A DNA stretch of 64,000 nucleotides from a virus (IMGVR_UViG_3300030330_005091:64001-128000), one strand, 5' to 3'; numbered from the stretch's first letter, positions 19,867-37,595 are shown. Notes: generated by a model from the sequence alone, not told the origin. Numbers and translations: made by a program.

Positions 19867-19925
19867 ATCATAACACATTACGTGCTACATGTCAACAATA
19901 AAAACGAAATGTCAAAAGAATGTCA
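19867..19925 (-). promoter_or_regulatory. TGACA-box promoter cassette (variant, N14)
   Basis: TGACA-N6-TGACA-N14-TTGACA-N17-TATGAT. Confidence 0.7.
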
Positions 19926-20263
19926 AGAAATATGTGCTTGACAGCGAGAGAGTGTATAGGTATAAAGTCTGTATAAAAATATCACACACAACCATCACAC
20001 TCAAACAAACATAAAGTCTAACTAACGCATATCCACCCCACAATATCCCACCTTAAACCACCATAACCCACAATACACAACTTTAATCATTGAGATATGA
20101 GATACAAACAAACACAGTAAACATCAGATAAACAAATACACTTAACATAAACTAACTCCTATTACGAATAAGATAATCAATAACCACTACTGATACGGTT
20201 GTACCTGTAATATAACCAATAATAAACATTTGCATAAGTATATTCTTTTGTTGTAGTCTCGGC

Positions 20264-21091
20264 CTATTTCTTCTTGGGGCGAGCCTTCATGATGAAACGC
20301 TCCTCAACCATCAGAGTGGTCGCCTTGCCTACAGGCAGCAGCTTGTAAACCTTGGCACCGCGAGCGGCAGATGTGACAGGCTTGGCATCAGTCTCGATAA
20401 CCATAAGTGTTACATTGCGCTTAAGGTAAGCCCCGTCAAGATACCGAACACCGGAAGGAGCGTTTGCGCGAAAAGTGACGAGCGAGCCCGCTGGATACTT
20501 GGCAGGCGCGTGGTGTGAAGCGAGCACCTTTTGTGCATACTTGTTTTTAACCATCTTATTATATTGTGAATAAGTTGGAATAAAAGTATCGTTGCCAATA
20601 ATCTCACGGGCTGTATCTTTGAAGTAACCCGTGGTCATATAATAGTTGGCAACCACGATAGCATCAGCACGGAGATCAGGATTATTTGTATAACTCTCGA
20701 CCCACTTCTGACGCTCGGCCAGTGCAGCATCATCATGCTCTGCTTCGATCTTGCGTAGAATCTCAAGCTGACGATCTGACAGGCGGCGATCACCTTTGAC
20801 TTGACTGGTCAGGCTCTCAACAAAGCCAGCAGCCCAGCTTGAAGGCTCGCAGCGCATGCTGAGAAGATCCAAGCGCATCAAGAACGTCTTGTGCTTCTCG
20901 GTAGCAGCCAACAACTTCTCAGGGGAATAGCGATCCTCCAGTGTAGCAACCCACTTGACACGACCAGCGGACAAGCGACCTTTGCGCTCATAGTAGGACA
21001 GAAGCGATTGAGCAAAGTCCTTATCACGCGCTGAGATAGCGGGATTGTTGATCAGAACTTCAAGGCGGGTGCGGTAGGTTGGACGAGCCAC
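20264..21091 (-). CDS. hypothetical early protein with C-terminal SH3-like domain
   Basis: two F..SL..Q....LS..Q repeats; KYPAGSLV. Confidence 0.7.
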   Translation of the reverse strand: MARPTYRTRLEVLINNPAISARDKDFAQSLLSYYERKGRLSAGRVKWVATLEDRYSPEKLLAATEKHKTFLMRLDLLSMRCEPSSWAAGFVESLTSQVKGDRRLSDRQLEILRKIEAEHDDAALAERQKWVESYTNNPDLRADAIVVANYYMTTGYFKDTAREIIGNDTFIPTYSQYNKMVKNKYAQKVLASHHAPAKYPAGSLVTFRANAPSGVRYLDGAYLKRNVTLMVIETDAKPVTSAARGAKVYKLLPVGKATTLMVEERFIMKARPKKK

Positions 21092-21120
21092 GTGTAATAC
21101 TCCTTGCTGATTACTCTATA

Positions 21121-21174
21121 AATATAGCATAGGGGAGTGAAAAGGTCAAGGTTTAAGTTGTCAAGGGAATGTTA
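21121..21174 (-). promoter_or_regulatory. TGACA-box promoter cassette
   Basis: TAACA-N6-TGACA-N9-TTGACC-N17-TATATT. Confidence 0.85.
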
Positions 21175-21474
21175 AGAGTTGTTTTCTTTCTCTCTACTCT
21201 CCGCATCCAACTCTGCAAGGTCTTTAGCAACGTCAGCAAGGGTCATTTTACGGGTTTTACGCAATTTGTTCTGGGCTCGTTGCAGCTTGCCCCAGCGCCG
21301 TGAGTTAGCAGGGTGCTTACAGATGTGCAGGTTCTCAATGCCGATGGCTGTAAGGCGTCTGAGGCTGTTCTGAGTGGCTTTAAGGGTGTCGGGCTTAGTC
21401 AACACGCGCTCGCTGCCTGAGAGCCTTCCAGCCTCGTTAATCTCAACGTCTGTTTTACTGATATAATACTTCAT
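21172..21474 (-). CDS. hypothetical protein
   Basis: SD AGGAG; stop inside cassette box. Confidence 0.65.
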   Translation of the reverse strand: MKYYISKTDVEINEAGRLSGSERVLTKPDTLKATQNSLRRLTAIGIENLHICKHPANSRRWGKLQRAQNKLRKTRKMTLADVAKDLAELDAESREKENNS

Positions 21475-21486
21475 GATCTCGGCTCC

Positions 21487-22740
21487 TTAGCAGTCGATTG
21501 CGATAACACGTTCATTGGTTTGGAAGTAGGGGCGAGCAGCGTGGACCTTGGTAGTCATCCACATACGTTGGCACTTGGATGCGATAGGCTTCGGAGCGCA
21601 AAGGTCAGTCAAGACAATGTGACCGTCAAAGTCGCCATCATTGACGAACTTGGTCGGCGCGTTGAAGCAAGTGCCGCCAGTCAACACGCGCTCGGTTTTC
21701 TTGGTTTGACCTTTCTTCCAAGTATATACCTTGTCAACGGCTACCTCGGTGTCGAATGGTACAACCGTGAACTCGGCAATCTCGGCCAGCTTGTTCAACT
21801 CGGAGAAGAACGCGGCGAGCATGCCATCATCAACCGATCCAGACTGGTCGATGGAGATAGCGATCTTGGCTTGACGACGCACGCGCTTGCCAGGGTGGAT
21901 CTTTGGGAACCGCTTGTTCAGGCGTCGAGGGGTCGAACGCTTGTCAGCACGTTGTGAGGTCTTGACGAAGTAACGAAGAACTTTGCGCCAATCAACCTTG
22001 GTCGCAACGCGGTCCATAATATCTTGACGCATACCAGACGAGACTGAGCCCCAGTTACGTGCCTTCTCAGCTTCCTCGGCAGCTTGCTTTACAGCTTCCT
22101 TCAATCGCTCTTTAGCAATCTCTTGAGTGGTGCTATCGCCATCACCGAACTGATCGTGACTGTCAAGTGAATCCATGCCACCGAAGGGATCACCATCGCC
22201 TTCACCGGGCTCGCCTTGACCATCGCCGTTGCTGTCTTGGTTCTCGGCCATATCTTTCAAGGCTTCGAGATACCATTCGTAGGTCTTGTTAGCAGGCAAG
22301 TGAGCAAACGGGCCTTCGCCGGGAAATACACCCTTCATGCCTTGACCATCGGCCATGATTGGGCCGGGGTCAGCTTCACACGGCAGCTTACCAGCCATTT
22401 CAGGCAGGCCGTTGATGGCAAGGTCCATCGCAATGTTGTCGATACGCTTGAGGCCATCGGCAGGCTTGCGGCCAGTCACGTGCTCGAAGATGATGTGATA
22501 GAACTCATGCATGAGGACACCAAGCTGATGCTCAGGCTTGAGAGCACCCATGAACTCAGGGTTATAAAGCAACTCGAACTGAGCGGTGTCGGGGTTGACA
22601 CGGACGCCAGCGGTCGGAAGGCTGGTAGTCGCGGTCTTGTCAATGCGACGAGACAGAGCGGCAAAGAACGGCTCGCGCATAAGCAGGCGAGCAGTGTGCA
22701 TGTTGAGATTGAAGGGCTTGATGGTCTTGTCGTCGGACAT
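21487..22740 (-). CDS. DUF2201-type metallopeptidase + VWA domain protein
   Basis: HEFYH, NIAMDLAIN, IDQSGS MIDAS, GGTCF, LTD; SD before ATG 22740. Confidence 0.85.
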   Translation of the reverse strand: MSDDKTIKPFNLNMHTARLLMREPFFAALSRRIDKTATTSLPTAGVRVNPDTAQFELLYNPEFMGALKPEHQLGVLMHEFYHIIFEHVTGRKPADGLKRIDNIAMDLAINGLPEMAGKLPCEADPGPIMADGQGMKGVFPGEGPFAHLPANKTYEWYLEALKDMAENQDSNGDGQGEPGEGDGDPFGGMDSLDSHDQFGDGDSTTQEIAKERLKEAVKQAAEEAEKARNWGSVSSGMRQDIMDRVATKVDWRKVLRYFVKTSQRADKRSTPRRLNKRFPKIHPGKRVRRQAKIAISIDQSGSVDDGMLAAFFSELNKLAEIAEFTVVPFDTEVAVDKVYTWKKGQTKKTERVLTGGTCFNAPTKFVNDGDFDGHIVLTDLCAPKPIASKCQRMWMTTKVHAARPYFQTNERVIAIDC

Positions 22741-22763
22741 GAATCTCTCCTGATTACCTATAT

Positions 22764-22817
22764 AATATAGCACGGGATGAGTGAAAAAGCAAGGGTTAAG
22801 TTGTCAAGGAAATGTCA
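22764..22817 (-). promoter_or_regulatory. TGACA-box promoter cassette
   Basis: TGACA-N6-TGACA-N9-TTGCTT-N17-TATATT. Confidence 0.85.
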
Positions 22818-23021
22818 GGAGATGGGAACACTAAAGGCAGCGTTGATCACTGTGTCGGCATACCATTGGGCACCGTCAGAACTGCCGTCAAATAGCCTGT
22901 AATGGCGTCTGTTGGCGTCAAGCTGTCCCCACTCCTTCTTGTAACTCTCACGCACTTCAACGACCAGACAGGGGCACTTATCGTGCTCCCTGATTAATAG
23001 GTCGCCTACCTTGAACTTCAA
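22815..23021 (-). CDS. small SH3/KOW-like (VGDL) protein
   Basis: FKVGDLLIR. Confidence 0.6.
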   Translation of the reverse strand: MKFKVGDLLIREHDKCPCLVVEVRESYKKEWGQLDANRRHYRLFDGSSDGAQWYADTVINAAFSVPIS

Positions 23022-24100
23022 GAGTTACCGCCAAGGATCTCAACAAGGTGGTCAGAGACACGGCGACCATCGGACGCCTCGGCCTTGTGGAGTGCCACAA
23101 CATTGTCAATGTTGTCGGTGTCACCGAGAACGGTCCACAACTTCATGGCGACCTCGGAAGGCAGGGTTACGAAGTAGTTGGCGAGGTTAGTGACCTGAGC
23201 CTCGGTCAGAGTCTCAGAGAACACATCAGATGCCTCGAACTTCTCAATCATGGCAGCGTGGTCATTGATACCCCACTGCTCGGTCTTCTCGATTTCACCG
23301 TTGTCAAGAATGTCAGCGATGGTCACTTGCCATTCGTACTTCTCAACGAAATCGCGGAGAGCGACAGCAGCCTCGAACCCGACGAAGGCAGTCGCGAGGT
23401 TGAACAGAAGGTCACGGTCGCCTTCCTCACCGAATACGCCGGTTGAAACTGCGGTATCGTTGAACCGCTTCCAGCTACGACGTGACGGGTAAACCTTGTT
23501 AGGCTCGAAGTCACCGCGATGCTCAAGGTGCATGCGGTTTTGGTTGATGAAGTCCCAGAGGATGCCATCAGTGCGGTCGGTCGCCCACTTCAACCAATCC
23601 TCATCGGAAGGCTCGACATCGAACACGGTCCAGCGGTCCAACTCGGCAGGGTCCATTTCGCCAACTTGGTATTGAGCACCGTGCTCGCCACCGTTGACAG
23701 CGGCAACGATCAGGGTGTCAGGGTGCAGACGCCAGCCGTTCAGCTTGCGGCTGTCGGTCAACTCGAAAAGACCCTGACGGACTTCCACAGTCGCACGATC
23801 AACCTCATCGAGGAACAGCATCACGGGCTGCTCACACGCGGTCACAAGCCAGTCAGGGGCGTTCCACGTGGTAGCCTTGCGGCCATTGATCTCGGTGTCT
23901 GCCGTGTCAGGCAGACCGAGAAGATCACCTTCGGTCATCTGGCTGGCACGACGCTCGACCACTGGAAGGTCGCGAGCAGCGGCGATCTGGTAGACCACCT
24001 CGGACTTGCCGACACCGTGACGACCGCGCAGAAGCACGGGCAGCTTGTTGTCGAGGATGTGAGGAGCGACGGTAGTGAATGTTGCGAAGTCGATAGCCAT
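23018..24100 (-). CDS. MoxR-like AAA+ ATPase
   Basis: GRHGVGKS Walker A, LFLDE Walker B, AAVN sensor, DPAELDRW Arg finger. Confidence 0.9.
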   Translation of the reverse strand: MAIDFATFTTVAPHILDNKLPVLLRGRHGVGKSEVVYQIAAARDLPVVERRASQMTEGDLLGLPDTADTEINGRKATTWNAPDWLVTACEQPVMLFLDEVDRATVEVRQGLFELTDSRKLNGWRLHPDTLIVAAVNGGEHGAQYQVGEMDPAELDRWTVFDVEPSDEDWLKWATDRTDGILWDFINQNRMHLEHRGDFEPNKVYPSRRSWKRFNDTAVSTGVFGEEGDRDLLFNLATAFVGFEAAVALRDFVEKYEWQVTIADILDNGEIEKTEQWGINDHAAMIEKFEASDVFSETLTEAQVTNLANYFVTLPSEVAMKLWTVLGDTDNIDNVVALHKAEASDGRRVSDHLVEILGGNS

Positions 24101-24147
24101 GATATGTTCTCCGTGGGAGGGGTTGTGTTCTTTGTTCTTACTCTATA

Positions 24148-24213
24148 AATATAGCATCATCAGAGTAAAAGGTCAAGGTTTATTTTGTCAAGTAAATGTC
24201 AAGGGATTTGTCA
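24148..24213 (-). promoter_or_regulatory. TGACA-box promoter cassette (three boxes)
   Basis: TGACA x3-N9-TTGACC-N17-TATATT. Confidence 0.85.
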
Positions 24214-24690
24214 AGTCGCTGGCTCAAGGTCGCGGGTCGGATAGGTCGGCCAGCCCCACCGTGGTTGAGCCTCACCCGTCCATGCGATGCGAGCATAGTC
24301 GCCAGCGTTGGCTTCCATCACAAGACCGACGCGACCAGCATAGCCCTGACGCATGGCCCGCTTGTTCTGTTTGCCTCGCACCAGTGAGCCAACGGGATAC
24401 TTAGGCGGCGATGGTAACAGGCTCTCACAGACCTGCGTGATGTTATCACGGAACGAGCCAGCGTGATAGTCGGTCATCAGATCAGAGTGGTCATTGACAC
24501 CGCGAACATGGAAGTTGTGCGCGTCGGCATCCATTTGTTCGTCATCAGGGCCACAGCCGTTGGCCAAGAACGAACCAACATAGCCGTTGTGCTGAAATGA
24601 CCAGCGGTGACCTACGAGTTTTACCTCAATGTCGATGCCTTGTTTCTTGAAGTGTGATTTGACTTTCTTGATTGCGTTGCGAACTTTCAT
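24211..24690 (-). CDS. hypothetical protein with C-terminal SH3/KOW-like domain
   Basis: KYPVGSLV...VGLV...ARIAW...DLE. Confidence 0.7.
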   Translation of the reverse strand: MKVRNAIKKVKSHFKKQGIDIEVKLVGHRWSFQHNGYVGSFLANGCGPDDEQMDADAHNFHVRGVNDHSDLMTDYHAGSFRDNITQVCESLLPSPPKYPVGSLVRGKQNKRAMRQGYAGRVGLVMEANAGDYARIAWTGEAQPRWGWPTYPTRDLEPAT

Positions 24691-24716
24691 GTAGTGCTCT
24701 CCTTGATTACTTATAT

Positions 24717-24770
24717 AATATACCACGTGCGGACGAAGATTGCAAGGGCAATCTTGTCAGGGAAATGTCA
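24717..24770 (-). promoter_or_regulatory. TGACA-box promoter cassette
   Basis: TGACA-N6-TGACA-N9-TTGCAA-N17-TATATT. Confidence 0.85.
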
Positions 24771-25646
24771 AAGGTCCAAACTTCTTCGGGCTTCGATGAA
24801 ATGGTTAGTACCATAGCGGCTCGATTCTTGATTGAACTTCGTAACATTCTCGGCATCGCGGAAGTCCCAATCACGGGCTTTGCCTGATGGATAGTATTGA
24901 TTGAAGTTTAGATCGTCAGCTTGAAGCCATCCAGCGGGCGGTTCAATCTTACCAGCAAGGGTGATCTCATTTTTATGAACCATGCCATTGACACTATGTG
25001 TGCTCTCAGTCGTCACCGCGTAGTGATCGCGAGGCGTAAGCCCTTCATTCAACGTGGCAGCATCTTGAAAACCGTATATACTTTCACTGTTTCGATGGTT
25101 AGGTGCAACCACTTGCCAGTTGAAGCTGGTCAGCATCATAGGACGCTCACGCGATCCCCACTGTTGGTTCTCGCCCCAGTATCCATAGCGCGTCATGATG
25201 GCCATAGAACCAATGCCAGCGCCCACATTGCGCATTTCCTCAAGGCGTTGGGCCCTGACCATCTGAGCGGCCTTGATGAATACGCGCCGATCTTCTTTGA
25301 GGATAGAACACGTGCGCCGAGTGTGACCCCGATCTCCACAATATGAGCATGTAACGGTTCTCATGCGGTCGGCTTTCGCGGCCGCCTTCTGCTCTTTCGT
25401 CATGACAATAGAAGCGCCCGTGTCAGGGTCACAGCGCGTGCGCTTGGTATATTGGCGTGCGTAAGATTCCATTTGCGTGCGGTAACCAGCAGCACCATTG
25501 TCATCGCCGTTAGCTTCGCATATTGCAAGGTTTTGTTTAGCAGTCTTATAGCGCTTGCGAAGGCGCAGATTCAACTCAGGGCAAGAGCGTTTGTTGTGGC
25601 CAGTTTGGTAGCAGTAAGAGCAGCGGACGGTTCCATTATATGACAT
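24768..25646 (-). CDS. protein with two CCHC zinc knuckles
   Basis: CSYCYQTGHNKRSC and CSYCGDRGHTRRTC. Confidence 0.8.
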   Translation of the reverse strand: MSYNGTVRCSYCYQTGHNKRSCPELNLRLRKRYKTAKQNLAICEANGDDNGAAGYRTQMESYARQYTKRTRCDPDTGASIVMTKEQKAAAKADRMRTVTCSYCGDRGHTRRTCSILKEDRRVFIKAAQMVRAQRLEEMRNVGAGIGSMAIMTRYGYWGENQQWGSRERPMMLTSFNWQVVAPNHRNSESIYGFQDAATLNEGLTPRDHYAVTTESTHSVNGMVHKNEITLAGKIEPPAGWLQADDLNFNQYYPSGKARDWDFRDAENVTKFNQESSRYGTNHFIEARRSLDL

Positions 25647-25670
25647 GTAGTTCTCCTTGATTACTTATAT

Positions 25671-25724
25671 AATATAGCACAGGCGAGAGGGGTTCGCAAG
25701 GGGTTCTTTGTCAAGAAGATGTCA
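25671..25724 (-). promoter_or_regulatory. TGACA-box promoter cassette
   Basis: TGACA-N6-TGACA-N9-TTGCGA-N17-TATATT. Confidence 0.85.
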
Positions 25725-25914
25725 AGGCACCATCAACAAGTGAAAGGTGTTGGCTCGCTTCGGTTTCTGGCTGTGTCTTGTCATTCCACAAAACTTTAAC
25801 ATCGCGGTTGCCAGTGTATTTACCAGTCTCGACAATCAGACCAACGTGGACAGATAGACCCTTTTGCCATCGTGTTCGTTGAAAGTAGTATGTCACCAGA
25901 TCACCGACTTGCAT
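25711..25914 (-). CDS. MxVGDLV array member
   Basis: MQVGDLVTY; GGAGGT SD; 14-nt overlap with upstream gene. Confidence 0.75.
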   Translation of the reverse strand: MQVGDLVTYYFQRTRWQKGLSVHVGLIVETGKYTGNRDVKVLWNDKTQPETEASQHLSLVDGALTSS

Positions 25915-26089
25915 TAACGACCTCCACGCGATGAGCCTCAATCCAACTTGTTCGCCCGTCATTCCATGTTACAACAGGATGGTTCGAGCGTTGAGTGTTA
26001 TCAGGCCATCTTGTATCTGTCCAATCAATAATAACCCCAAGCATACCGCTTTCTGACCAAAGGTTTCTCACCAGATCACCGACTTTCAT
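25901..26089 (-). CDS. MxVGDLV array member
   Basis: MKVGDLV...VEVVNASR. Confidence 0.8.
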   Translation of the reverse strand: MKVGDLVRNLWSESGMLGVIIDWTDTRWPDNTQRSNHPVVTWNDGRTSWIEAHRVEVVNASR

Positions 26090-26113
26090 GTGATTTCTCC
26101 TTTCTATACATAT

Positions 26114-26167
26114 AATATAGCATCGGCTGGGGCGGTTGTCAATGGCTCAAATGTCAGGGAAATGTTA
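26114..26167 (-). promoter_or_regulatory. TGACA-box promoter cassette
   Basis: TAACA-N6-TGACA-N9-TTGACA-N17-TATATT. Confidence 0.85.
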
Positions 26168-26521
26168 AGCCTTGCCTTTGTGGTTTGCATTTCCAGCGTT
26201 GTAAGCCACGTGGCGCATTGGTCGGTTTCCAATAGTTGTGTTAGAACCTGACAAATGACAAGACTTGCCCTTGTGGAAACCAGTCACAGCCTTCCAAGCC
26301 TTAGAATACGACTCGCGATCTTCGTTGGACTCGAACGCAACGATTGAGATACCAGCGGCCTTACCATCACCAGCGGACAGCCCCAGATACTTAACAGCAG
26401 TCTCGGTGCCAAGTTCCTCAACGCAGTCAGGACACTCGTTGATCTTACCGCCGGCTTGCTTCTTGGCGGTCGAGTCAAGATCAAAAGAGATTCCACAATG
26501 TTTACATTCTTTGGTGTTCAT
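26165..26521 (-). CDS. zinc-ribbon protein
   Basis: CKHC...CPDC. Confidence 0.7.
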   Translation of the reverse strand: MNTKECKHCGISFDLDSTAKKQAGGKINECPDCVEELGTETAVKYLGLSAGDGKAAGISIVAFESNEDRESYSKAWKAVTGFHKGKSCHLSGSNTTIGNRPMRHVAYNAGNANHKGKA

Positions 26522-26527
26522 TTCTAC

Positions 26528-26884
26528 CTACCAGTCAATGGGGTCGTTAGCAACAGGGTTTGCAGTGCCGCGCATTAGTCTCTGTTCCACAGTCTCGGCG
26601 TCCTCGACTTGAAACTCACCGAAGCGCACGCCGCGGCGCTCTGCCGCACGGCTGGATGCCTTCTGCATCTCGCGAGCACGGATGCCAGCGTCAACGAAAG
26701 CAGCCTCGGCAATCTCGGTAGGCTCCCACTCATCAACCACGTCACCTGATTGTTCCATCAAATCATGGCAAAGTTCAATAGCAGGCTGACCATCGGCATC
26801 CGTGCGTGTGCCAGCCTCGTGAAGAAGATCGAGAATCAAATCAAGTTCGCGCTGGGTAACTCGAATGTTTAGAATGTCAGACAT
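26528..26884 (-). CDS. hypothetical protein
   Basis: SD AGGAG behind cassette. Confidence 0.7.
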   Translation of the reverse strand: MSDILNIRVTQRELDLILDLLHEAGTRTDADGQPAIELCHDLMEQSGDVVDEWEPTEIAEAAFVDAGIRAREMQKASSRAAERRGVRFGEFQVEDAETVEQRLMRGTANPVANDPIDW

Positions 26885-26906
26885 GTTTGCTCCTTGTTAT
26901 GTATAT

Positions 26907-26960
26907 AATATAGCCCATAACTTGGCTGTTGTCAATGGTTAAAATGTAAAGAGAATGTCA
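26907..26960 (-). promoter_or_regulatory. TGACA-box promoter cassette
   Basis: TGACA-N6-TTACA-N9-TTGACA-N17-TATATT. Confidence 0.8.
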
Positions 26961-27101
26961 AGCCCGCTATACATGAATCGCTGTTCTCGCCGCGTCTTTC
27001 ACTCGCCAGCCACCTTTCAACTCCCCAAAGGGTATGGGTTCATGGGTGACATTGAACCCGTTACTCTGTATAGTTTATAGATAGCCGACTTGACATTCTC
27101 T
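26950..27101 (-). repeat. 152-bp non-coding element bounded by 21-bp inverted repeats (candidate ncRNA)
   Basis: agagaatgtcaagcccgctat (26950-26970) vs revcomp of 27081-27101, 19/21; internal GGGTTCA/TGAACCC hairpin. Confidence 0.6.
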
Positions 27102-27108
27102 AGTAAAA

Positions 27109-27483: not shown

Positions 27484-27485
27484 CT

Positions 27486-30446: not shown

Positions 30447-30615
30447 TGATTACCTCCAGCCATTTCTTCGGTTCCCATGATGCTTCTGCATCTTCAATCC
30501 AATATACTTCAACACGACCAAGCCCATGCTTTTCCCCGTCTGGTTTCTCTCTCAAAACAATACCTGTGGCTGGCTCAATCGACCCAGGCATTATTACCAA
30601 ATCACCGACTTGCAC
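30433..30615 (-). CDS. MxVGDLV array member
   Basis: MQVGDLV...VEVYW...LEVISESR. Confidence 0.8.
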   Translation of the reverse strand: MQVGDLVIMPGSIEPATGIVLREKPDGEKHGLGRVEVYWIEDAEASWEPKKWLEVISESR

Positions 30616-30787
30616 TGATCACCTCCAAATGTTGTGGTTGAAAGCAACACACGGCCCCAGTGTGGGACAACATGACGCCCCACAAATCAGATACCTTAAA
30701 GTATTCGACAACGATACCTGTCGCAAATGACCCGTTAGCGCGTCGGCTATGGACTGTCAGACATTTAACTAAGTCACCGACTTTCAT
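30602..30787 (-). CDS. MxVGDLV array member
   Basis: MKVGDLV...LEVISASR. Confidence 0.8.
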   Translation of the reverse strand: MKVGDLVKCLTVHSRRANGSFATGIVVEYFKVSDLWGVMLSHTGAVCCFQPQHLEVISASR

Positions 30788-30947
30788 TGACTACCTTCAA
30801 ATAGCATACTGAATAGTTACCCACATCGCCATCGTTCCATGTGACTTCAACTTCTTCCATATCGCCAATCTGTTCAGGATCTACGCATGTGATAATACCC
30901 AACGCTGGCAATCCTCCCCGCATCTTAACTAAATCACCGACTTTCAT
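30774..30947 (-). CDS. MxVGDLV array member, head of array (57 aa, not in ORF track)
   Basis: MKVGDLVKM...VEVTW...LKVVNESR. Confidence 0.8.
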   Translation of the reverse strand: MKVGDLVKMRGGLPALGIITCVDPEQIGDMEEVEVTWNDGDVGNYSVCYLKVVNESR

Positions 30948-30969
30948 ATTTCTCCCTGATTACTTATAT

Positions 30970-31023
30970 AATATAGCATCATCGAACACTGCCGTCAATG
31001 GTTTGTTTGTCAAGGAAATGTCA
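30970..31023 (-). promoter_or_regulatory. TGACA-box promoter cassette
   Basis: TGACA-N6-TGACA-N9-TTGACG-N17-TATATT. Confidence 0.85.
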
Positions 31024-31212
31024 AGCCTCGCTGACAACTTCGATTTTATCCACCGAAGGGCTAATAATATGCACTCTTGCTCTCTCAAAGCACCACATTT
31101 GCCAAACACAGTCCTGACCACAATCAGGCGTTTGAAACACAATACCATGGAATGGACTTGTCCAGTCCTCTTCTTCACGGTATCTAACTTTAATCAAATC
31201 ACCGAGCTTCAT
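31021..31212 (-). CDS. MxVGDLV array member
   Basis: MKLGDLI...IEVVSEA. Confidence 0.75.
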   Translation of the reverse strand: MKLGDLIKVRYREEEDWTSPFHGIVFQTPDCGQDCVWQMWCFERARVHIISPSVDKIEVVSEA

Positions 31213-31405
31213 CAATCGGCTTCAGGTCAGTCAACGGCACACCGCGTAATGTGCCCTTGAACAATATACGGGCGAAGGGTTCAGGCTCAATATCTTTGAA
31301 GCTGACAGCCTTCCCGCGCTCTGCGGTGCGCCACATCTTACTTTCATAAAGTTCTGTAATGAGGGTCGGATGGCCATTCCACATTACCAAATCATTTACT
31401 TTCAT
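31199..31405 (-). CDS. MxVGDLV array member
   Basis: MKVNDLV...LKPIDEAR. Confidence 0.7.
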   Translation of the reverse strand: MKVNDLVMWNGHPTLITELYESKMWRTAERGKAVSFKDIEPEPFARILFKGTLRGVPLTDLKPIDEAR

Positions 31406-31530
31406 TAAAAACTCCAGATCGCATAGGCAATCATACCCAATGCTGATAAGATTCCAATCCAACTGACGATGAGAACATTTTTTTCGGCTGCCTCAATATC
31501 ATCTTTGAATGTTTTTTTATTGTGTTTCAT
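31405..31530 (-). CDS. small membrane peptide (41 aa, not in ORF track)
   Basis: MKHNKK...VSWIGILSALGMIAYAIWSF; coupled both sides. Confidence 0.5.
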   Translation of the reverse strand: MKHNKKTFKDDIEAAEKNVLIVSWIGILSALGMIAYAIWSF

Positions 31531-31753
31531 ATTCCACCTTTGCTGTTTTCACATAAAATACAACTTTGTCTCCATTTTTAACATGTTTAAGTTGTTTTTT
31601 ATTTAGCTTGACCCAAGTAAACGCGCCCGGTGCGTTCGTAATCTCAACCAAGACCATTCTATCAAAATACATTTGATCGTCTACAACTGTTCCGTTTAGT
31701 TTTGCTCTGTTAGCAGAACACCCGACTAAAAATAGTAAAGTTAAAAACTTCAT
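31517..31753 (-). CDS. small lipoprotein
   Basis: MKFLTLLFLVGC lipobox. Confidence 0.65.
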   Translation of the reverse strand: MKFLTLLFLVGCSANRAKLNGTVVDDQMYFDRMVLVEITNAPGAFTWVKLNKKQLKHVKNGDKVVFYVKTAKVEYETQ

Positions 31754-32049
31754 TTTACTCCCTCAATGTGGCGACATTTGCGCCGATAACTAAACCCAGG
31801 ACAGGTGCAAGAATATGCACCGTCAGATAGCTTGACTGTATAAATATTTCCTTTGCTACCCTCAACCTTCCATACCTTTTCTCCGGCAGGACGCTTGATT
31901 TCACGGGGCTTATAGGTCATGTATTTGTGCAGTTCATCAAAAGTTGTTTCTGGTGGGACTTCAACCCACGCAGAACCAGCGATTGCATAACAGATTCCAT
32001 CAGCATTTCTGAAAAGTGCCGGTGGTATTGATACTTCGATAGGTTTCAC
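31750..32049 (-). CDS. SWIM zinc-finger protein
   Basis: GSKGNIYTV...CTCPGF...CRHI. Confidence 0.85.
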   Translation of the reverse strand: MKPIEVSIPPALFRNADGICYAIAGSAWVEVPPETTFDELHKYMTYKPREIKRPAGEKVWKVEGSKGNIYTVKLSDGAYSCTCPGFSYRRKCRHIEGVK

Positions 32050-32121
32050 ATCAACCCCATTGTTACAATCATGCCGATCAGGAACCCAAGACCGACCATT
32101 ACTACATACTCAGTGACCATT

Positions 32122-32244
32122 TTATGCTCCACATGTAAAAAAATGAATACCAAAGAAAAGCAGTGCGCCCCAACACACGGCATCCACCGCGACCAAAGCC
32201 ATCGCAAATCTATTGCGTCCAATCATCATAGCTGTTTTACCCAT
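32122..32244 (-). CDS. small membrane peptide (40 aa), followed by a 24-aa TM peptide at 32046-32120
   Basis: AGGAGA SD directly behind cassette; hydrophobic. Confidence 0.5.
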   Translation of the reverse strand: MGKTAMMIGRNRFAMALVAVDAVCWGALLFFGIHFFTCGA

Positions 32245-32267
32245 TAGTGTTCTCCTGTCATACATAT

Positions 32268-32321
32268 AATATAGCATCGTCAATATCATTAGTCAACCTT
32301 TCAAATGTGAAGAAGATGTCA
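32268..32321 (-). promoter_or_regulatory. TGACA-box promoter cassette
   Basis: TGACA-N6-TCACA-N9-TTGACT-N17-TATATT. Confidence 0.8.
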
Positions 32322-32514
32322 AGTAGATTATATCATCAAGTCTTGGGTTTACCAAAAACTTCCCGCCGTCACACCAAACAATCCAAATAGTATCTTTCCA
32401 GCCGCCTGCACGCCTATCGTCATTGACATAAGCATCCAACACAATGCAAGGGTTTGACCAGTCATCTTCTCCAAAAGATTTTGGCTTGAATGAGATTAGA
32501 TCACCGACTCGCAC
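32293..32514 (-). CDS. MxVGDLV array member
   Basis: GTG start MRVGDLISF...WIVW. Confidence 0.75.
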   Translation of the reverse strand: MRVGDLISFKPKSFGEDDWSNPCIVLDAYVNDDRRAGGWKDTIWIVWCDGGKFLVNPRLDDIIYLTSSSHLKG

Positions 32515-32695
32515 TAACGACCTCAAGAACTTGCGTATCAAACCACACCGTTTCTCCGCCGGCGAATAAAACTTGTGCAGACTTTGTTTTGTGACCGGTC
32601 TTTGAAATCTGTAATACAAGCCCGTAGGATTTGGTGTGATAATCCATGCTATCGTTCAAAACACTTTCCCAACTTACCAAATCACCTACTTTCAC
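32501..32695 (-). CDS. MxVGDLV array member
   Basis: MKVGDLV...LEVVSASR. Confidence 0.8.
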   Translation of the reverse strand: MKVGDLVSWESVLNDSMDYHTKSYGLVLQISKTGHKTKSAQVLFAGGETVWFDTQVLEVVSASR

Positions 32696-32885
32696 TAATC
32701 ACTCTTATTTCATCCTGATACATAATAGAACCACCATCTTCACTCAGCCATATAGGGTGTCTCCACAGAACTTTGACGCCTGCGGGCTCTTGGGGCTGGC
32801 CCCACATATTAAGATCAGTTTCCAGCACAATCCCAATACCGTGTTCAGGCTCATTAATGTTTAGCACCAAATCACCCACCTTCAT
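32682..32885 (-). CDS. MxVGDLV array member
   Basis: MKVGDLV...VKVLW...IRVISESR. Confidence 0.8.
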   Translation of the reverse strand: MKVGDLVLNINEPEHGIGIVLETDLNMWGQPQEPAGVKVLWRHPIWLSEDGGSIMYQDEIRVISESR

Positions 32886-33048
32886 TGATTCTCTCCAGCT
32901 TTTTTGCTTGCTCATGTGTATAATGCCACTGGCCATTTATATTATCCCACTTTACAATCACATAGTCAAGTGTTATTTTGACAACAGATCCTACGGGGTT
33001 TTCCACTCTAAGCACAGACGCTCTTGTAACTCTGTCACCTACGTTCAC
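32872..33048 (-). CDS. MxVGDLV array member (58 aa, not in ORF track)
   Basis: MNVGDRV...VIVKW...LERINEGG. Confidence 0.75.
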   Translation of the reverse strand: MNVGDRVTRASVLRVENPVGSVVKITLDYVIVKWDNINGQWHYTHEQAKKLERINEGG

Positions 33049-33211
33049 TAATGACCTCCAATAAATCTACAGCCTCCCAAGAGTTATGTTGCTCGCCGTT
33101 CCATTTTACCATGACTTCTACACCTTTTTTTAGTTTCGGTCCCTGTGTCGCAGTTACAATACCATACCATTTGTGATACCTCACAAGGTCGCCTTTGTTT
33201 ATTTTTTTCAT
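33035..33211 (-). CDS. MxVGDLV array member (58 aa, not in ORF track)
   Basis: MKKINKGDLV...VMVKW...LEVISERR. Confidence 0.75.
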   Translation of the reverse strand: MKKINKGDLVRYHKWYGIVTATQGPKLKKGVEVMVKWNGEQHNSWEAVDLLEVISERR

Positions 33212-33432
33212 TCAACATGCTCCATAAACATTTCATGAAATCTTAACACAACACCGTTTGTCATGAGAACCTTCCACTGTTTTGGTTGTCTCTTGTCTTT
33301 GTCTTTGCCCCAATATTGAATCGTGATATTTCTTTCTATAAGGTGTCCCATTCTTGACGTAGGCATACGCTCATCATGTGTCCCTTCTTTGATGCGAACA
33401 AAGTCACCGCTATTAAATATCTTCTTCATCAT
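33208..33432 (-). CDS. small SH3/KOW-like protein
   Basis: FNSGDFVRI...WKVL. Confidence 0.7.
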   Translation of the reverse strand: MMKKIFNSGDFVRIKEGTHDERMPTSRMGHLIERNITIQYWGKDKDKRQPKQWKVLMTNGVVLRFHEMFMEHVE

Positions 33433-33778
33433 CTTCTAAGTTTTCTTTGTTATATATGTCATAATAAAACTCATCTGTTGAGGGCCCATCCCATTCCCAA
33501 GTGCTTTCATAGTATCCCTCATCGTTATAGCCTGATTCAAAAGTATAATGATTATAATATTCTTCGTCACTCATTGGAACATAAAAAAGCGTTCCAGTTT
33601 TTGTTGGGTCACCCAACTGATCCATTATATTCCCAAGAAGATAGCGCATGTATTGTATTTCTTCTTCGTTATCAACTTCTTGCTGGATGCGAGCCTTTTC
33701 AGCTTCTTCTTCTTCTTCTTCCTTCTGCTTGCGAAAAGCAGCGAGATCAACAACGTTGTCATCATATTCTTTCGACAT
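33413..33778 (-). CDS. acidic hypothetical protein
   Basis: NVVDLAAFRK motif; D/E-rich. Confidence 0.65.
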   Translation of the reverse strand: MSKEYDDNVVDLAAFRKQKEEEEEEAEKARIQQEVDNEEEIQYMRYLLGNIMDQLGDPTKTGTLFYVPMSDEEYYNHYTFESGYNDEGYYESTWEWDGPSTDEFYYDIYNKENLEDDEEDI

Positions 33779-34107
33779 TAGAATGGCACCTCATCTCTAA
33801 ATAGTGGAGAACATTCGGAAACCAACTGGTGGAATATTGTGTCTGCAAACCTTTTTGCAAGTTCGATGTGTGCAAGCGTAGCTTTGATATTGTGTTCATA
33901 GCTTAACGGAACATCGTTGAGGTCAAGGTCCGCCACAACACATACACCAGCATCGGTGCGGTGACCAATCTTGCGATGATATGATAGCAACTCACCATCA
34001 AGTGCCATCAAGGTATGATGGTGATTACGCGCATTTTTTCCTTCTTTCCACAACTTGAGTACATTAAAGTTGTCGGTCACATGTACGTTATCGTATGGAT
34101 TAATCAC
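33778..34107 (-). CDS. hypothetical protein (GTG start)
   Basis: GGAGAG SD before GTG 34107; L.SY...IG motif. Confidence 0.6.
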   Translation of the reverse strand: MINPYDNVHVTDNFNVLKLWKEGKNARNHHHTLMALDGELLSYHRKIGHRTDAGVCVVADLDLNDVPLSYEHNIKATLAHIELAKRFADTIFHQLVSECSPLFRDEVPF

Positions 34108-34375
34108 CTTTATCTCTCCAGATTTCGTCCGCAAATGTCTTAGTGAAGCGTAGCGATGCAATATCCTCAATGTCAAAGAGTTCGTCAGTTTTATACCTTT
34201 CCACAGCTTGCCTGCCAAACTTGCGAAGTGCTTTGATATATTCAATCTTGCCAAACGACTTGTTGCCAGCGCCATAAGGGACGCCAACATACTTCGTATA
34301 CATGATACGAACCATTTTGTATGCGTCCTCAATGCCATTAATGTCATCCGAGTCTATAACGATTGTCATTTTCAT
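34100..34375 (-). CDS. hypothetical protein (probably leaderless)
   Basis: ATG 6 nt after -10 of cassette. Confidence 0.65.
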   Translation of the reverse strand: MKMTIVIDSDDINGIEDAYKMVRIMYTKYVGVPYGAGNKSFGKIEYIKALRKFGRQAVERYKTDELFDIEDIASLRFTKTFADEIWRDKGD

Positions 34376-34381
34376 AACTAT

Positions 34382-34435
34382 AATATACCTTATTGCATTG
34401 GAGTTGTCAAGTCGTGCGATGTCATGTGGTTGTCA
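34382..34435 (-). promoter_or_regulatory. TGACA-box promoter cassette
   Basis: TGACA-N6-TGACA-N9-TTGACA-N17-TATATT. Confidence 0.85.
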
Positions 34436-34477
34436 AGAAAGGAAAATTTTGGGCGAAGGAAAAAATCGCGGATCGGG

Positions 34478-34795
34478 CTATCGGCTGGATGCCCTCAACA
34501 TCGGAACACCTGCTGGAACCTCCCCTTCGACCATGCCGCCGTGCTTCGCGATAACATTTGTTACCACTTGTGTTGGAACGTAGCCATAAACTGTGCCTGT
34601 TGGATCTTCTTTGTCCTCGCACCAATCCATCAAAAGCGGCTCTTCCGATGACGGGAAACCGACTTCGACTTCATCATAACTTTCTGCATTGTCGATGCGT
34701 GGTGAACAGTATGCGCCATCGTGGGCTTGCACGCTCATTTTGAACCCATCGGCGCAAACAACTTGTTGGTTTAATTTACTTCTAAATTTATTCAT
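34478..34795 (-). CDS. conserved phage hypothetical protein
   Basis: CADGFKMSVQA...YCSPR...EVGFPS...TVYGYVP...HGG. Confidence 0.8.
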   Translation of the reverse strand: MNKFRSKLNQQVVCADGFKMSVQAHDGAYCSPRIDNAESYDEVEVGFPSSEEPLLMDWCEDKEDPTGTVYGYVPTQVVTNVIAKHGGMVEGEVPAGVPMLRASSR

Positions 34796-34994
34796 CGTCT
34801 AAGATACTCTGGATTGCGGTGTGGAGTTCATACATTGATGGTGGTGCTTCGCGAGCGTCGTTCAAAATCTTTTGAATATCAATCAGCTTTTTTTGGGGCG
34901 AGATAATCTTAATCTTTGGATTCTCGGTCTCTTCTTTCTCGTTTGATTTGTTGCTCCACCTTGTTTCATAAAGGTTACGGTCATGGTATCCCAT
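34788..34994 (-). CDS. hypothetical protein
   Basis: AGGAGA SD. Confidence 0.6.
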   Translation of the reverse strand: MGYHDRNLYETRWSNKSNEKEETENPKIKIISPQKKLIDIQKILNDAREAPPSMYELHTAIQSILDDE

Positions 34995-35021
34995 TTATGT
35001 TTTTCTCCTTTGGGTTGTAAA

Positions 35022-35097
35022 TGGTGCGCCTAGCGGGATTTGAACCCGCGACACCTGCTTTATAAGAACAACGCTCTAACCCCTGAGCTATAGGCGC
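35022..35097 (-). tRNA. tRNA-Ile(UAU)
   Basis: cloverleaf GCGCCTA.../TAGGCGC ACCA, loop CT-TAT-AA, TTCAAAT. Confidence 0.85.
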
Positions 35098-35169
35098 GTG
35101 GGCTGGGGTTAACTTGTGGCGTCCGGTCGATTGACTCTAGTTTATGTCCGAGTAAGCTGTCTCCTAAAG

Positions 35170-35245
35170 TGGCACATCTGGTAGGATTCGAACCTACGAC
35201 TCTCGGCTTAGAAGGCCGATACTCTATCCACTGAGTTACAGATGC
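35170..35245 (-). tRNA. tRNA-Arg(UCU)
   Basis: cloverleaf, TCGGC-CT-TCT-AA-GCCGA, GCCA end. Confidence 0.92.
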
Positions 35246-35255
35246 ATTGATTGGT

Positions 35256-35537
35256 CTATGTCATTTCAAAAACATTGTCATATACATCAATCGGCTCGTT
35301 GGTGCTTTTGCGTGTTGATTCTGACTTTGCATTATCATTGACAAAATTATCGTAAAAATAAACTGGGTGGTCACCAGGCACCAAGGCTATCAAGCACATG
35401 TTATTGCTACCGCCCATTTTTGCGGCAGCTAACCACGCCGCTTTTCTATCTATAACTCCAGTATATCTTGAGCAACTTAGCTGTCCTTGTGGGCCTTGAA
35501 AAATGGCAGTATAAATCATCTCATTGTTCTCCATCAT
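35256..35537 (-). CDS. hypothetical protein
   Basis: ORF between tRNAs. Confidence 0.6.
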   Translation of the reverse strand: MMENNEMIYTAIFQGPQGQLSCSRYTGVIDRKAAWLAAAKMGGSNNMCLIALVPGDHPVYFYDNFVNDNAKSESTRKSTNEPIDVYDNVFEMT

Positions 35538-35772
35538 TTGTTTTGCTATCTCCTTGAGGATCTTTACATATAATAACAGGTACAGATTCTTCTGTCAACT
35601 TTAAAATGTAGAAAGTGTCGCCTTCTTTTACTACACACGGAAAAGCATGCAAAGGCAGCACAGCATGCCCAGCTTGTTGGGTCGCTGGGTTCATGTTAAT
35701 TTCAACCGTGGCGAAGAAGTCATCTCTCGAATCCACTGTTCCAACCAGTAGAAATGTAGTTAGTAGTTTCAT
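35521..35772 (-). CDS. hypothetical protein
   Basis: ORF between tRNAs. Confidence 0.6.
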   Translation of the reverse strand: MKLLTTFLLVGTVDSRDDFFATVEINMNPATQQAGHAVLPLHAFPCVVKEGDTFYILKLTEESVPVIICKDPQGDSKTNDGEQ

Positions 35773-35789
35773 ATTATTCTCTTATTAGA

Positions 35790-35866
35790 TGGTGGGCCCT
35801 CTGGGGCTCGAACCCAGGACTATCCCGTTATGAGCGGGGTGCTCTGACCAACTGAACTAAAGGCCC
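35790..35866 (-). tRNA. tRNA with CAU anticodon, probably Ile2 (lysidine) rather than Met
   Basis: GGGCCTT acceptor stem with C4-G69/C5-G68, loop CT-CAT-AA, ACCA. Confidence 0.85.
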
Positions 35867-35872
35867 GTGTTT

Positions 35873-36184
35873 TTAAAATTTGTTAGTTACTTGGAACACC
35901 GTATGATCTGCTCCCTTCTGTTCTGACTTCTCAATCTTTTTGTTGTTTTCTGGCCCCAATGGATCTTCAACCGGAGTATGGATACATGCTGCCATAAGAT
36001 CCTCTTTGTTAGTCCACCTAACAAGAACAATTCTGTCGTCTGTTTTTTCAATTCGACGTGTTCCATATTGCATGTATGGATATTTTGTTTTATATACTTC
36101 ACATGCTTGCTCAATCTCTTCTGTTGAGCCGGATGCCGTATAACATGTCTTGAAACAATCCATTGGTACTTCATAGTCTTGCAT
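35873..36184 (-). CDS. hypothetical protein
   Basis: AGGAGA SD. Confidence 0.6.
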   Translation of the reverse strand: MQDYEVPMDCFKTCYTASGSTEEIEQACEVYKTKYPYMQYGTRRIEKTDDRIVLVRWTNKEDLMAACIHTPVEDPLGPENNKKIEKSEQKGADHTVFQVTNKF

Positions 36185-36203
36185 ATTATCTATCTCCTTA
36201 AAG

Positions 36204-36278
36204 TGGTGGGTCGTCTGGGATTCGAACCCAGAACCTATTGGTTAAAAGCCAAGTGCTCTGCCGTTGAGCTAACGACCC
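36204..36278 (-). tRNA. tRNA-Lys(UUU)
   Basis: GGGTCGT/ACGACCC stem, CT-TTT-AA, ACCA. Confidence 0.92.
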
Positions 36279-36287
36279 GATTCTTAA

Positions 36288-36494
36288 TTAAAACTTGTGG
36301 AACTTCTCTTTTGGGTATCGGGATGGCTTGCAAAGACCTTCTTCAATCAGATGCATCGCGTGCCTACCAAACCAACCCTGCAATCTCCAAGCCAAGCCAG
36401 TGTCAATAAGATGCTGCCACGCTTCATAGTATTGTTCTGGTTTCTCAGGCTCTGTATAGCCTTCTGCAATATTAATAGCTTCCACATCAGACAT
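36288..36494 (-). CDS. conserved phage hypothetical protein
   Basis: AWQHLIDTGLAWRLQGWFGR.A..LIE.G. Confidence 0.75.
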   Translation of the reverse strand: MSDVEAINIAEGYTEPEKPEQYYEAWQHLIDTGLAWRLQGWFGRHAMHLIEEGLCKPSRYPKEKFHKF

Positions 36495-36696
36495 GCTCCT
36501 CTCCATTGTGAAGTGTTTCTTCGTGAACCGTAAGCAACTCACCGGTTTGAAGCAAGTGAATCACCCAGCCCTTTTCCGTGGTCGGAACCACATCATCAAC
36601 CTCTTCAATCGCGATTGATTCGCCTTCAACATCACATTGTTCTAGCAATACTGCGGGGCCTTGGTCGAGCCACGCCTTTACTTGTCCTGCTCTCAT
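36487..36696 (-). CDS. hypothetical small beta protein
   Basis: AGGAGAG SD. Confidence 0.6.
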   Translation of the reverse strand: MRAGQVKAWLDQGPAVLLEQCDVEGESIAIEEVDDVVPTTEKGWVIHLLQTGELLTVHEETLHNGEEHV

Positions 36697-36717
36697 TGTT
36701 TTTTACTCTCCTTAAAA

Positions 36718-36804
36718 TGGTGCTTGAGGCGGGAATCGAACCCGCACGCCCAGATGGGCGACAGATTTTAAGTCTGTTGTGTCTACCTATTCCACCACTC
36801 AAGC
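36718..36804 (-). tRNA. tRNA-Leu(UAA)
   Basis: long variable arm, ACAGA-CT-TAA-AA-TCTGT, ACCA. Confidence 0.92.
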
Positions 36805-36812
36805 ATATACAT

Positions 36813-36876
36813 ATTCTATCCGATGTGATGTTGCTTGTCAACAACTTTCTTTATGTTTTTTGTGAGCGAAATGTCA
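36813..36876 (-). promoter_or_regulatory. TGACA-box promoter cassette of tRNA operon (N19 variant)
   Basis: TGACA-N6-TCACA-N19-TTGACA-N17-TAGAAT. Confidence 0.75.
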
Positions 36877-37134
36877 AGACACTTTGCAAACCTCATCCTC
36901 TGAAAAAAAGCGCCTGACTCCATCTGTGCAATGCACAACGTAGAGAATGTCAAAGTCATCTTCATAGCCGTCCCAACAAGCATAATCAATATCAACAACG
37001 ATACCAAAGTGCTCATCCTCTAAATCCTTGTCGTCATTGTGCCAAGCATAGTAATAGTGATAGTTGTAATAAACATGAATACACCGCACAAAGTCGCCCA
37101 CGCGGTAGCGGGGATGTATCTGAAAATCGTCCAC
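36874..37134 (-). CDS. small SH3/KOW-like (VGDFV) protein
   Basis: YRVGDFV...FGIVV...LYVV. Confidence 0.7.
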   Translation of the reverse strand: MDDFQIHPRYRVGDFVRCIHVYYNYHYYYAWHNDDKDLEDEHFGIVVDIDYACWDGYEDDFDILYVVHCTDGVRRFFSEDEVCKVS

Positions 37135-37146
37135 ATAATAACTATA

Positions 37147-37524
37147 TCACTTTACCTTTCGCAACCAATCAATCGGACACCATTCTTCGATTTCTTTAGT
37201 TTGATTAGTCTCATACATTGAAGGCTGTTCAAACCATCGCACTCTTACAAACTCTTTTTTGGGTTTCTTCGCCCAACTTGCATTGTAAATCATGCATGTG
37301 GTAATCAAATCAGGGTGCTTTGCGTGCTCTCTGAGTTTTCTGCGATATGCGGCACGCGCATCATACTTACTACCAAACGCATCAAGAGCTTCCATAAACT
37401 CGTCAAACGTCACACCTGCTTCTGCTCTCTCAATGAGATCTCCCGCGTGCTCCAGCACGATACCCATTCCTTTATTCTTGCGGCGATACATGCAAACAAG
37501 ATCGCCAACTTTAACTTTAGCCAT
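37147..37524 (-). CDS. SH3/KOW-like (VGDLV) protein with helical insertion
   Basis: MAKVKVGDLV..GMGIVL...VRVRW...WLRKV. Confidence 0.75.
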   Translation of the reverse strand: MAKVKVGDLVCMYRRKNKGMGIVLEHAGDLIERAEAGVTFDEFMEALDAFGSKYDARAAYRRKLREHAKHPDLITTCMIYNASWAKKPKKEFVRVRWFEQPSMYETNQTKEIEEWCPIDWLRKVK

Positions 37525-37542
37525 ACTTTCTCCTACACCACT

Positions 37543-37595
37543 AATATAGCACACTCACAGTGTTATGCAAGCAATTAGTTGTCAAGGAAATGTCA
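37543..37595 (-). promoter_or_regulatory. TGACA-box promoter cassette
   Basis: TGACA-N6-TGACA-N9-TTGCAT-N16-TATATT. Confidence 0.8.

Follow-up and report, generated by a model that had tools for sequence, protein, structure and literature searches.

The 64,000 nucleotides of IMGVR_UViG_3300030330_005091:64001-128000 (hereafter the window) carry sixteen copies of one promoter cassette between positions 19867 and 37596, in each of which two nearly identical boxes stand head to tail directly upstream of a sigma70-type promoter. The question raised by this arrangement is what reads the boxes. Our answer, which we hold with about even confidence, is that the cassette is an early promoter unit resembling the promoter-early stem-loop cassettes (PeSLs) of T4-type phages, and that its two boxes form a tandem operator for a dimeric regulator bound in the class-I position, most likely an OmpR-family response regulator of the host.

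The window is one part of a virus record of 195,690 bp, and the assembly closes on itself, as a 98-bp terminal overlap shows. The minus strand carries all of the large open reading frames (ORFs) and is the coding strand throughout the genome, which encodes major head, portal, large terminase and tail-sheath proteins of the T4 type. The phage is an uncultured, marine relative of T4. Its closest cultured relatives, Flavobacterium phage immuto, Microcystis phage Mel-JY01 and Rhodothermus phage RM378, are distant, with terminase and capsid proteins at 44-47% identity.

Anatomy and constraint of the boxed promoters

All sixteen cassettes are on the minus strand, with their left ends where a preliminary description of the window had placed them. 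They share the layout cTTGACA-N5-cTTGACA-N9-TTGnnn-N17-TATATT, followed by ATATAnGTAATC, AAGGAGA and a start codon. The window has 14 occurrences of the pattern TGACA-N6-TGACA, whereas shuffled sequences predict 0.23. Both boxes are exact in 11 of the 16 cassettes, and the other five have a single box mismatch each: TAACA at 21174 and 26167, TTACA at 26960, and TCACA at 32321 and 36876. Downstream of the boxes, the -35 element begins with TTG in all 16 copies, the spacer is 17 nt long, the -10 element is TATATT in 14 of 16, and most copies have the TGn of an extended -10. Promoters of the sigma70 type have their two hexamers 17+/-1 bp apart upstream of a gene, and these cores, with a Shine-Dalgarno sequence and start codon downstream, belong to that type. 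Box 2 and the -35 are separated by 9 nt in 14 of the 16 copies; the tRNA-operon promoter (36876) has 19 nt here, and the copy at 19925 has 14 nt. These gaps are the ones given in the preliminary description, which was also right that the spacer sequences vary, at lengths that we find to be fixed, and that many copies share a continuation past the -10, where we find the tail ATATAnGTAATCAAGGAGA to be frequent.

The box pair occupies about -61 to -45, with its centre near -53, directly upstream of the -35. In a genome-wide scan the cassettes are restricted to 83.9-101.6 kb of the genome, a zone with a GC content of 0.45-0.55 as compared with 0.36-0.40 in the rest.

We measured the composition of each element with the other two elements held fixed. 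In boxes 1 and 2, T2, A4 and C5 are invariant (100%) and A6 nearly so (95-100%). More change is tolerated at position 1, with T in 82-89% and mostly C in the remainder, and at position 3, with G in 85-90% and T or A in the remainder. The true -35 is constrained at other positions, with T1, T2 and G3 at 98-100%, A4 at 77%, C5 at 75%, and position 6 divided between T (43%) and A (26%). Since the constraint profiles of box and -35 are opposite despite a common consensus, the boxes are not simply extra -35 elements. The contrast also singles out concrete positions for point mutation. A comparison of syntenic cassettes between the genomes G000 and G009, in which the flanking proteins are about 50-85% identical, puts the boxes at 94% identity, the -35 at 71%, the -10 at 79% and the remaining positions at 53%, so that the boxes are the best-conserved part of the cassette.

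The spacing is rigid too. Across 0.94 Mb of related loci, the starts of same-strand TGACA boxes are 11 bp apart 478 times, 10 bp apart twice and 12 bp apart 23 times, and the gap from box to -35 is 9 nt in 333 of 362 cassettes. The 19-nt gap at the tRNA promoter, longer by 10 bp, is kept in both G000 and G009, and this conserved variant would fit a dependence on the face of the helix. Together, the rigid spacing and the constraint profile favour a dedicated dimeric binder.

Box pairs are also found in a cluster, in both orientations, at 19328-19461, outside any cassette. They belong to a non-coding landmark (19290-19465, minus strand) that each genome has as a single copy, just past the early zone on its downstream side, and that is conserved across 40 aligned copies (for example L018, L035, L077 and L134). 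The landmark includes a C-rich tract, CCCCCCTACCCCCC, which is directly preceded in most relatives by the palindrome GGGGGTACCCCC; after the tract come GGAATGTATGTC and a conserved block of about 45 nt, GCTAAG..TTTTCGAT..AAAAATTT.GAGATAT. On either side stand arrays of TGACA-N6-TGACA pairs, one pair being on the plus strand, and the upstream array has up to six boxes at 11-12-bp steps. None of these arrays has a standard core promoter at the cassette distance. They look like the multi-site binding of an oligomerising protein, and they speak for a dedicated reader of the boxes. The aligned copies gave no Rfam match and no consensus fold that would indicate a structured RNA, and the A-tract/AGATAT motif of the landmark was considered as a genome-wide promoter class and rejected. 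The landmark could be an origin, a Rho-utilisation site or a platform for a regulator.

Inserted beside the landmark is a gene (17719-19212, minus strand) for a 497-aa protein with a helix-turn-helix and an EndoVII/HNH domain, probably a free-standing homing endonuclease. The syntenic site in G009 is without this gene, consistent with an insertion. We considered the protein as a candidate reader of the boxes and dropped it, because it is HNH/EndoVII-like and is absent in G009.

Candidate readers of the boxes

In the host-regulator interpretation that we prefer, the core, consisting of cCTTGACn and 17 nt that end in TGn before TATATT, would be a strong sigma70-type promoter read by the RNA polymerase holoenzyme, and the head-to-tail operator yTTGACA-N5-yTTGACA at -61 to -45 would be read by a dimeric protein other than sigma region 4. 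Geometry and half-site together make a response regulator of the host, of the OmpR/PhoB family, the most likely reader. Bound in the class-I position, this regulator would boost the first transcription of the phage or tie that transcription to the state of the host, and a short leader with a strong Shine-Dalgarno sequence would complete the cassette. We infer, then, that a protein binds the boxes, that it is of host origin, and that it activates rather than represses. The resemblance of the 11-bp direct repeat to OmpR/PhoB-family sites was already part of the preliminary description, and it is strengthened by the 478 pairs at 11 bp and by the position of the site, which is also compatible. An OmpR-type reader would have to come from the host, because no OmpR-type domain (PF00486, Trans_reg_C) scored above the cut-off in six complete genomes of the clade. 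No Sigma70_r4_2 domain was found in the phage search.

The closest characterised match is CenR, an essential OmpR-family regulator of alphaproteobacteria that recognises the direct repeat TGA-N8-TGA (PMC9275681, PMC11328730). In activated operons its sites lie upstream of the -35 (PMC9275681), and the listed sites read TGAC(G/A)-N6-(G/T)TGAC (PMC9275681, PMC11328730). Judged by motif, TGACA-N6-TGACA would be a perfect CenR site, with the same 11-bp period and a matching position. The resemblance is at the motif level only, however; the host is at best a possible alphaproteobacterium, and the exact geometry shows no clear enrichment in those alphaproteobacteria that were sampled. The core of the cassette equals the rhizobial sigma70 consensus, which in Sinorhizobium meliloti is CTTGAC-N17-CTATAT (PMC2873474).

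A second comparison is with the cyanobacterial regulator RpaB and its HLR1 site. RpaB binds direct repeats of (G/T)TTACA(T/A)(T/A) and activates when these are centred at about -51 (PMC6525291). Like the boxes, whose centre is at about -53, the HLR1 site has two direct-repeat half-sites with an ACA core and a preference for T/A in the flanks (PMC6525291). On the other hand, its period is 10 bp (8 + 2) rather than 11 bp and its position 3 is T where the boxes have G; a cyanobacterial host is not established for this phage, and the nearest cyanophage relative, Mel-JY01, is without box pairs.

UP elements consist of A/T tracts and are read through the minor groove, and the polymerase alpha subunit's C-terminal domain has sites near -42 and -52. 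The boxes share with UP elements and with T4 early promoters the provision of extra, helically periodic elements upstream, by which phage early promoters outcompete those of the host. Unlike UP elements, they hold an invariant C5 and mostly G3, and their register differs from that of the UP subsites by about 5 bp. Since they are not A/T tracts, the boxes are not UP elements.

Several observations weigh against a host activator. The core, with its invariant TTG, extended -10 and near-consensus -10, should be strong without an activator, whereas OmpR-family promoters are expected to have a weak or absent -35 and an activator-dependent core; here the TTG is kept at 98-100%. A core of such expected strength makes repression or shut-off just as possible. 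In sequence the box is identical to the -35 consensus that is universal, and this may mean that sigma region 4, or a protein resembling it, is at work instead. With all genes on one strand, the uniform orientation may also reflect a role for the boxes at the RNA level, in read-through transcripts. Bacterial genomes give little help: the exact double box had 74 matches against 40 for the control in sampled Marinimicrobia and 31 against 17 in sampled Alphaproteobacteria (a count that takes in 2 matches from an unpublished genome, G203), neither being a clear enrichment, and the full geometry had 14 matches in Alphaproteobacteria against 2 for the control, with about 17 by uniform expectation.

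If the boxes are indeed read by a response regulator of the host, then abundant uncultured ocean phages would sense host physiology at the first step of expression, and the box would be a sequence tag for both host lineage and regulator. A bolder version, to which we give little credence, is that the immediate-early programme of the clade and the tRNA operon are wired to the tandem site of an essential, CenR-like OmpR-family regulator of envelope or division, such that infection starts only, or most strongly, when that regulator is active. The arrays at the landmark would then be a second docking platform, not a promoter, for the same protein, for example at an origin or as a sink for the regulator.

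The boxes could instead be auxiliary -35 elements, an antenna read by region 4 of sigma70 in the RNA polymerase that hands the holoenzyme on to the core, with no separate regulator involved. In keeping with this, the boxes equal the extended -35 consensus cTTGACAt, they occur only upstream of sigma70-type promoters and in the direction of transcription, and their sequence is unchanged across a diverged clade, as would be expected if the reader were a universally conserved component of the host. We nevertheless think it unlikely. The substitutions that are tolerated are opposite, T-ACA being fixed in the boxes and TTG in the -35. A single holoenzyme cannot explain the box pair, because it has one region 4, and the sharp 11-bp pairing is left without an explanation. 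The paired arrays at the landmark, moreover, have no matching core promoter.

We attach a similarly low probability to the proposal that a phage protein, made from a boxless promoter, binds the boxes as a tandem dimer and shuts off or retunes the boxed promoters. The best candidate is a clade-specific, Cys-rich mini-protein of 87 aa (55866-56129, minus strand) with the helix-turn-helix of sigma70 region 4 and a conserved, hydrophobic C-terminal tail ending in F. Its invariant cysteines lie in the N-terminal half, which is probably zinc-binding. The protein matches PF04545 with E = 7.5e-9, and its helix-turn-helix aligns to region 4.2 of RpoD. The gene is outside the boxed zone. Of 9 other clade genomes searched, 8 have the protein, and it is represented in 83 metagenomic protein clusters; it was detected neither in the cultured-phage collection nor, with the profile, in two cultured relatives. 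Co-occurrence with the cassette is, however, confounded by shared ancestry, and G005, a complete genome with at least 8 box pairs, has no homologue that could be detected, a profile search included. In addition, the equivalents of the base-contacting residues R584 and E585 of sigma70 are changed to F/L and A/V/S, and the conserved tail ending in F better suits a clamp-binding late co-activator like gp33. We presume, by comparison with gp33 and gp55 of T4, that this tail is akin to a sliding-clamp-binding peptide; the mini-protein may, by analogy, be a sigma-4-derived counterpart of the T4 late co-activator gp33. A fold search returned weak sigma matches only. Should a phage protein prove to be the reader, it would represent a new early-transcription switch in T4-related phages lacking MotA/AsiA.

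Whatever binds it, the cassette also serves as a seam for module exchange, because the upstream ORF usually stops at the TGA of the boxes and the genes are not divided by any terminator. Among 15 cassettes, nine have the stop codon of the upstream ORF (TGA or TAA) in box 1, three have it in box 2 and one has it in the -35; the box 1 variant TAACA provides a TAA stop. We counted 14 terminator-like sites where 16 were expected, and no cassette has one in front of it. In G009 the order of the modules at 28838-27956 and 27656-27065 is inverted and further modules are relocated. The breakpoints in module order between G000 and G009 fall at cassettes, which agrees with the link drawn in the preliminary description between repeated cassettes and shuffling in T4-type phages.

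The PeSLs of T4-type phages are likewise built from a repeated sigma70-like early promoter with a Shine-Dalgarno sequence and a start codon, and, like the cassettes here, they stand at the head of small ORFans in a hyperplastic region (PMC2839356, PMC4122927). They mark breakpoints between related genomes, as the cassettes do here. The upstream part of a PeSL is a stem-loop and an AT-rich stretch (PMC2839356, PMC4122927), whereas here there is no hairpin, and what lies upstream is a rigid pair of TTGACA boxes, which contain G and C and also supply the stop codon. Because no terminator-like hairpin precedes any cassette, the stem-loop that defines the PeSL is missing. As a compact and portable combination of stop codon, operator, promoter and ribosome-binding site, the cassette helps to explain the shuffling of early modules in the clade.

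It is possible to go further and regard the boxes as mainly structural seams, that is, as a universal stop codon and recombination target whose likeness is maintained by gene conversion and not by protein binding. The upstream stop codons within boxes and the G000/G009 breakpoints at cassettes are in line with such a role, for which the PeSL cassettes offer a precedent (PMC2839356, PMC4122927). We consider it quite unlikely, though, as a full account. Gene conversion should homogenise the spacers, yet their sequences vary at fixed lengths. A role in initiation is indicated by the distance to the -35, which is exactly 9 nt, and by conservation of the +10 variant. Box arrays occur at a landmark that is not genic, and all that a stop codon requires is TGA, without two copies of T-ACA 11 bp apart.

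Marine phages are known to exploit PhoBR, and the Pho box reads CTGTCAT-N4-CTGTCAT on the coding strand and replaces the -35. The remaining suggestion, made in the preliminary description, that the boxes are Pho boxes through which host PhoB links early transcription to phosphate status, is very improbable: although the 11-bp repeat holds TGACA, the complement of the TGTCA core of the Escherichia coli Pho box, that core is inverted with respect to Pho promoters, the half-site is yTTGACA and not CTGTCAT, the cassettes keep a separate -35 with an invariant TTG where Pho promoters replace it, and no phosphate-acquisition gene is seen among the annotated genes of the zone.

Occurrence in other phages and in bacteria

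An exact-pattern scan of IMG/VR returned 102 stretches, many of them on contigs of 185-205 kb. Five complete relatives have their box pairs in one 12-20-kb zone, in near-uniform orientation, with 0-1 control matches. Box pairs were found in neither Mel-JY01 nor immuto, and a 484-kb uncultured phage (LR756508) has two stray matches and no zone. One cassette, searched with BLAST against 50,697 phage records, had no match, and the cassette design was not found in the literature searched.

Matches in a scan of GTDB genomes were mostly single and at chance level. Apparent host copies in the "WOR-3 bin77 chromosome" (CP070664.1; L123, L139-L142) and in a metagenome-assembled genome (MAG) of Neomarinimicrobiota (NZIV01000080.1; L116) were rejected as misbinned pieces of related phages, with 68% identity in the terminase, 72% in a 1173-aa protein and many phage genes present. 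These pieces are binning or scaffolding contaminants, neither prophages nor host promoters; they hint weakly, at most, at co-abundance and are no evidence on the identity of the host. A promoter resembling the cassette, found in two MAGs of alphaproteobacteria, lies in true chromosome, beside lpxA/lpxB; we set it aside as a single site that is probably due to chance.

Codon usage, individual cassettes and other promoters

That the boxed zone is early can be argued independently of the analogy to T4, from codon usage. The genes of the zone (19900-37600 of the window, as compared with the remaining genome) have a GC content at third codon positions of 0.52-0.57, against 0.31 elsewhere. AUA makes up 6-11% of their Ile codons as compared with 32% elsewhere, AGA 8-14% of Arg codons as compared with 46%, AAA 31-41% of Lys codons as compared with 71%, and UUA 3-5% of Leu codons as compared with 33%. 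The four codons that the zone genes avoid are those served by the phage tRNAs encoded in the zone, and the promoter of the phage tRNA operon is itself boxed. The simplest reading is that the zone genes are translated with the tRNA pool of the host, before the phage tRNAs accumulate; the avoidance fits that pool and an early time of expression. The pattern points to two codon regimes in the genome, matched to timing, and suggests that the GC content of the host is higher than that of the phage. The proposal in the preliminary description that the early region uses promoters of the host type is thus supported both by the sigma70-like anatomy and by codon usage of an early kind.

Taken in the order of transcription, all on the minus strand, the first cassette (37543-37596) has exact boxes, a 9-nt gap, the -35 TTGCAT and the -10 TATATT, and drives a 125-aa ORF at 37147-37524. 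The second (36813-36877) is the tRNA-operon promoter, with box 2 as TCACA, an A-rich gap of 19 nt, the -35 TTGACA and the -10 TAGAAT. Downstream of it the tRNA operon (35022-36804, minus strand) encodes Leu-TAA, Lys-TTT, Met, Arg-TCT and Ile-TAT, with small ORFs between the tRNAs. Cassettes 3 (34382-34436), 4 (32268-32322, box 2 TCACA), 5 (30970-31024) and 6 (29350-29404) follow, and then cassette 7 (28783-28837), whose downstream module is reordered relative to the next module in G009. Next come cassette 8 (27699-27753), cassette 9 (26907-26961, box 2 TTACA) and cassette 10 (26114-26168), in which box 1 is TAACA and gives the upstream ORF its TAA stop.

Toward the landmark, cassette 11 (25671-25725) drives a 292-aa protein with a C2H2 zinc-finger match. 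Cassette 12 (24717-24771) is followed by cassette 13 (24148-24202), which drives an AAA_5 (MoxR/CobS-like) ATPase at 23018-24100, and by cassette 14 (22764-22818), which drives a DUF2201 metallopeptidase/VWA protein at 21487-22740. Cassette 15 (21121-21175), with box 1 as TAACA, drives a 275-aa ORF at 20264-21091. The last, cassette 16 (19867-19926), is a variant with a gap of 14 nt, the -35 TTGACA and the -10 TATGAT. After Pfam and PHROGs searches most genes of the zone remain unannotated.

The genome has two promoter classes besides the boxed one: boxless promoters of the sigma70 type and the motif (A/C)ACTATTTA(T/A). The boxless sigma70-type promoters, TTGACA-N17-TATAAT or TATATT, lie outside the zone, with a few inside. 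Their presence on both sides of its boundary makes it an overreach to say, as the preliminary description did, that a box factor gates the entire early region, while its observation that sigma70-like promoters elsewhere are without boxes stands. Its example, labelled groEL and placed at 60980, is indeed boxless but was mislabelled: the promoter at 60980-61008 (minus strand, TTGACA-N17-TATATT) precedes an 84-aa gene and a dUTPase-like gene, and that of groEL is at 52148-52176 (minus strand, TTGACA-N17-TATAAT), also boxless.

The motif (A/C)ACTATTTA(T/A) is found 22-42 nt before start codons throughout the genome, structural genes included, with 44 occurrences on the coding strand and 9 on the opposite strand. 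Examples in the window are at 47428, 42449, 33804, 16628, 16103 and 923. It is likely to be the late promoter of the clade, the counterpart of TATAAATA in T4.

The groEL promoter precedes a gene for a full-length GroEL (50548-52125, minus strand), and a 244-aa protein with an HPD (J-domain-like) motif is encoded at 61015-61749 (minus strand). Pfam gave no confirmation of a J-domain in the latter protein; together, the two genes suggest a phage-encoded set of chaperones.

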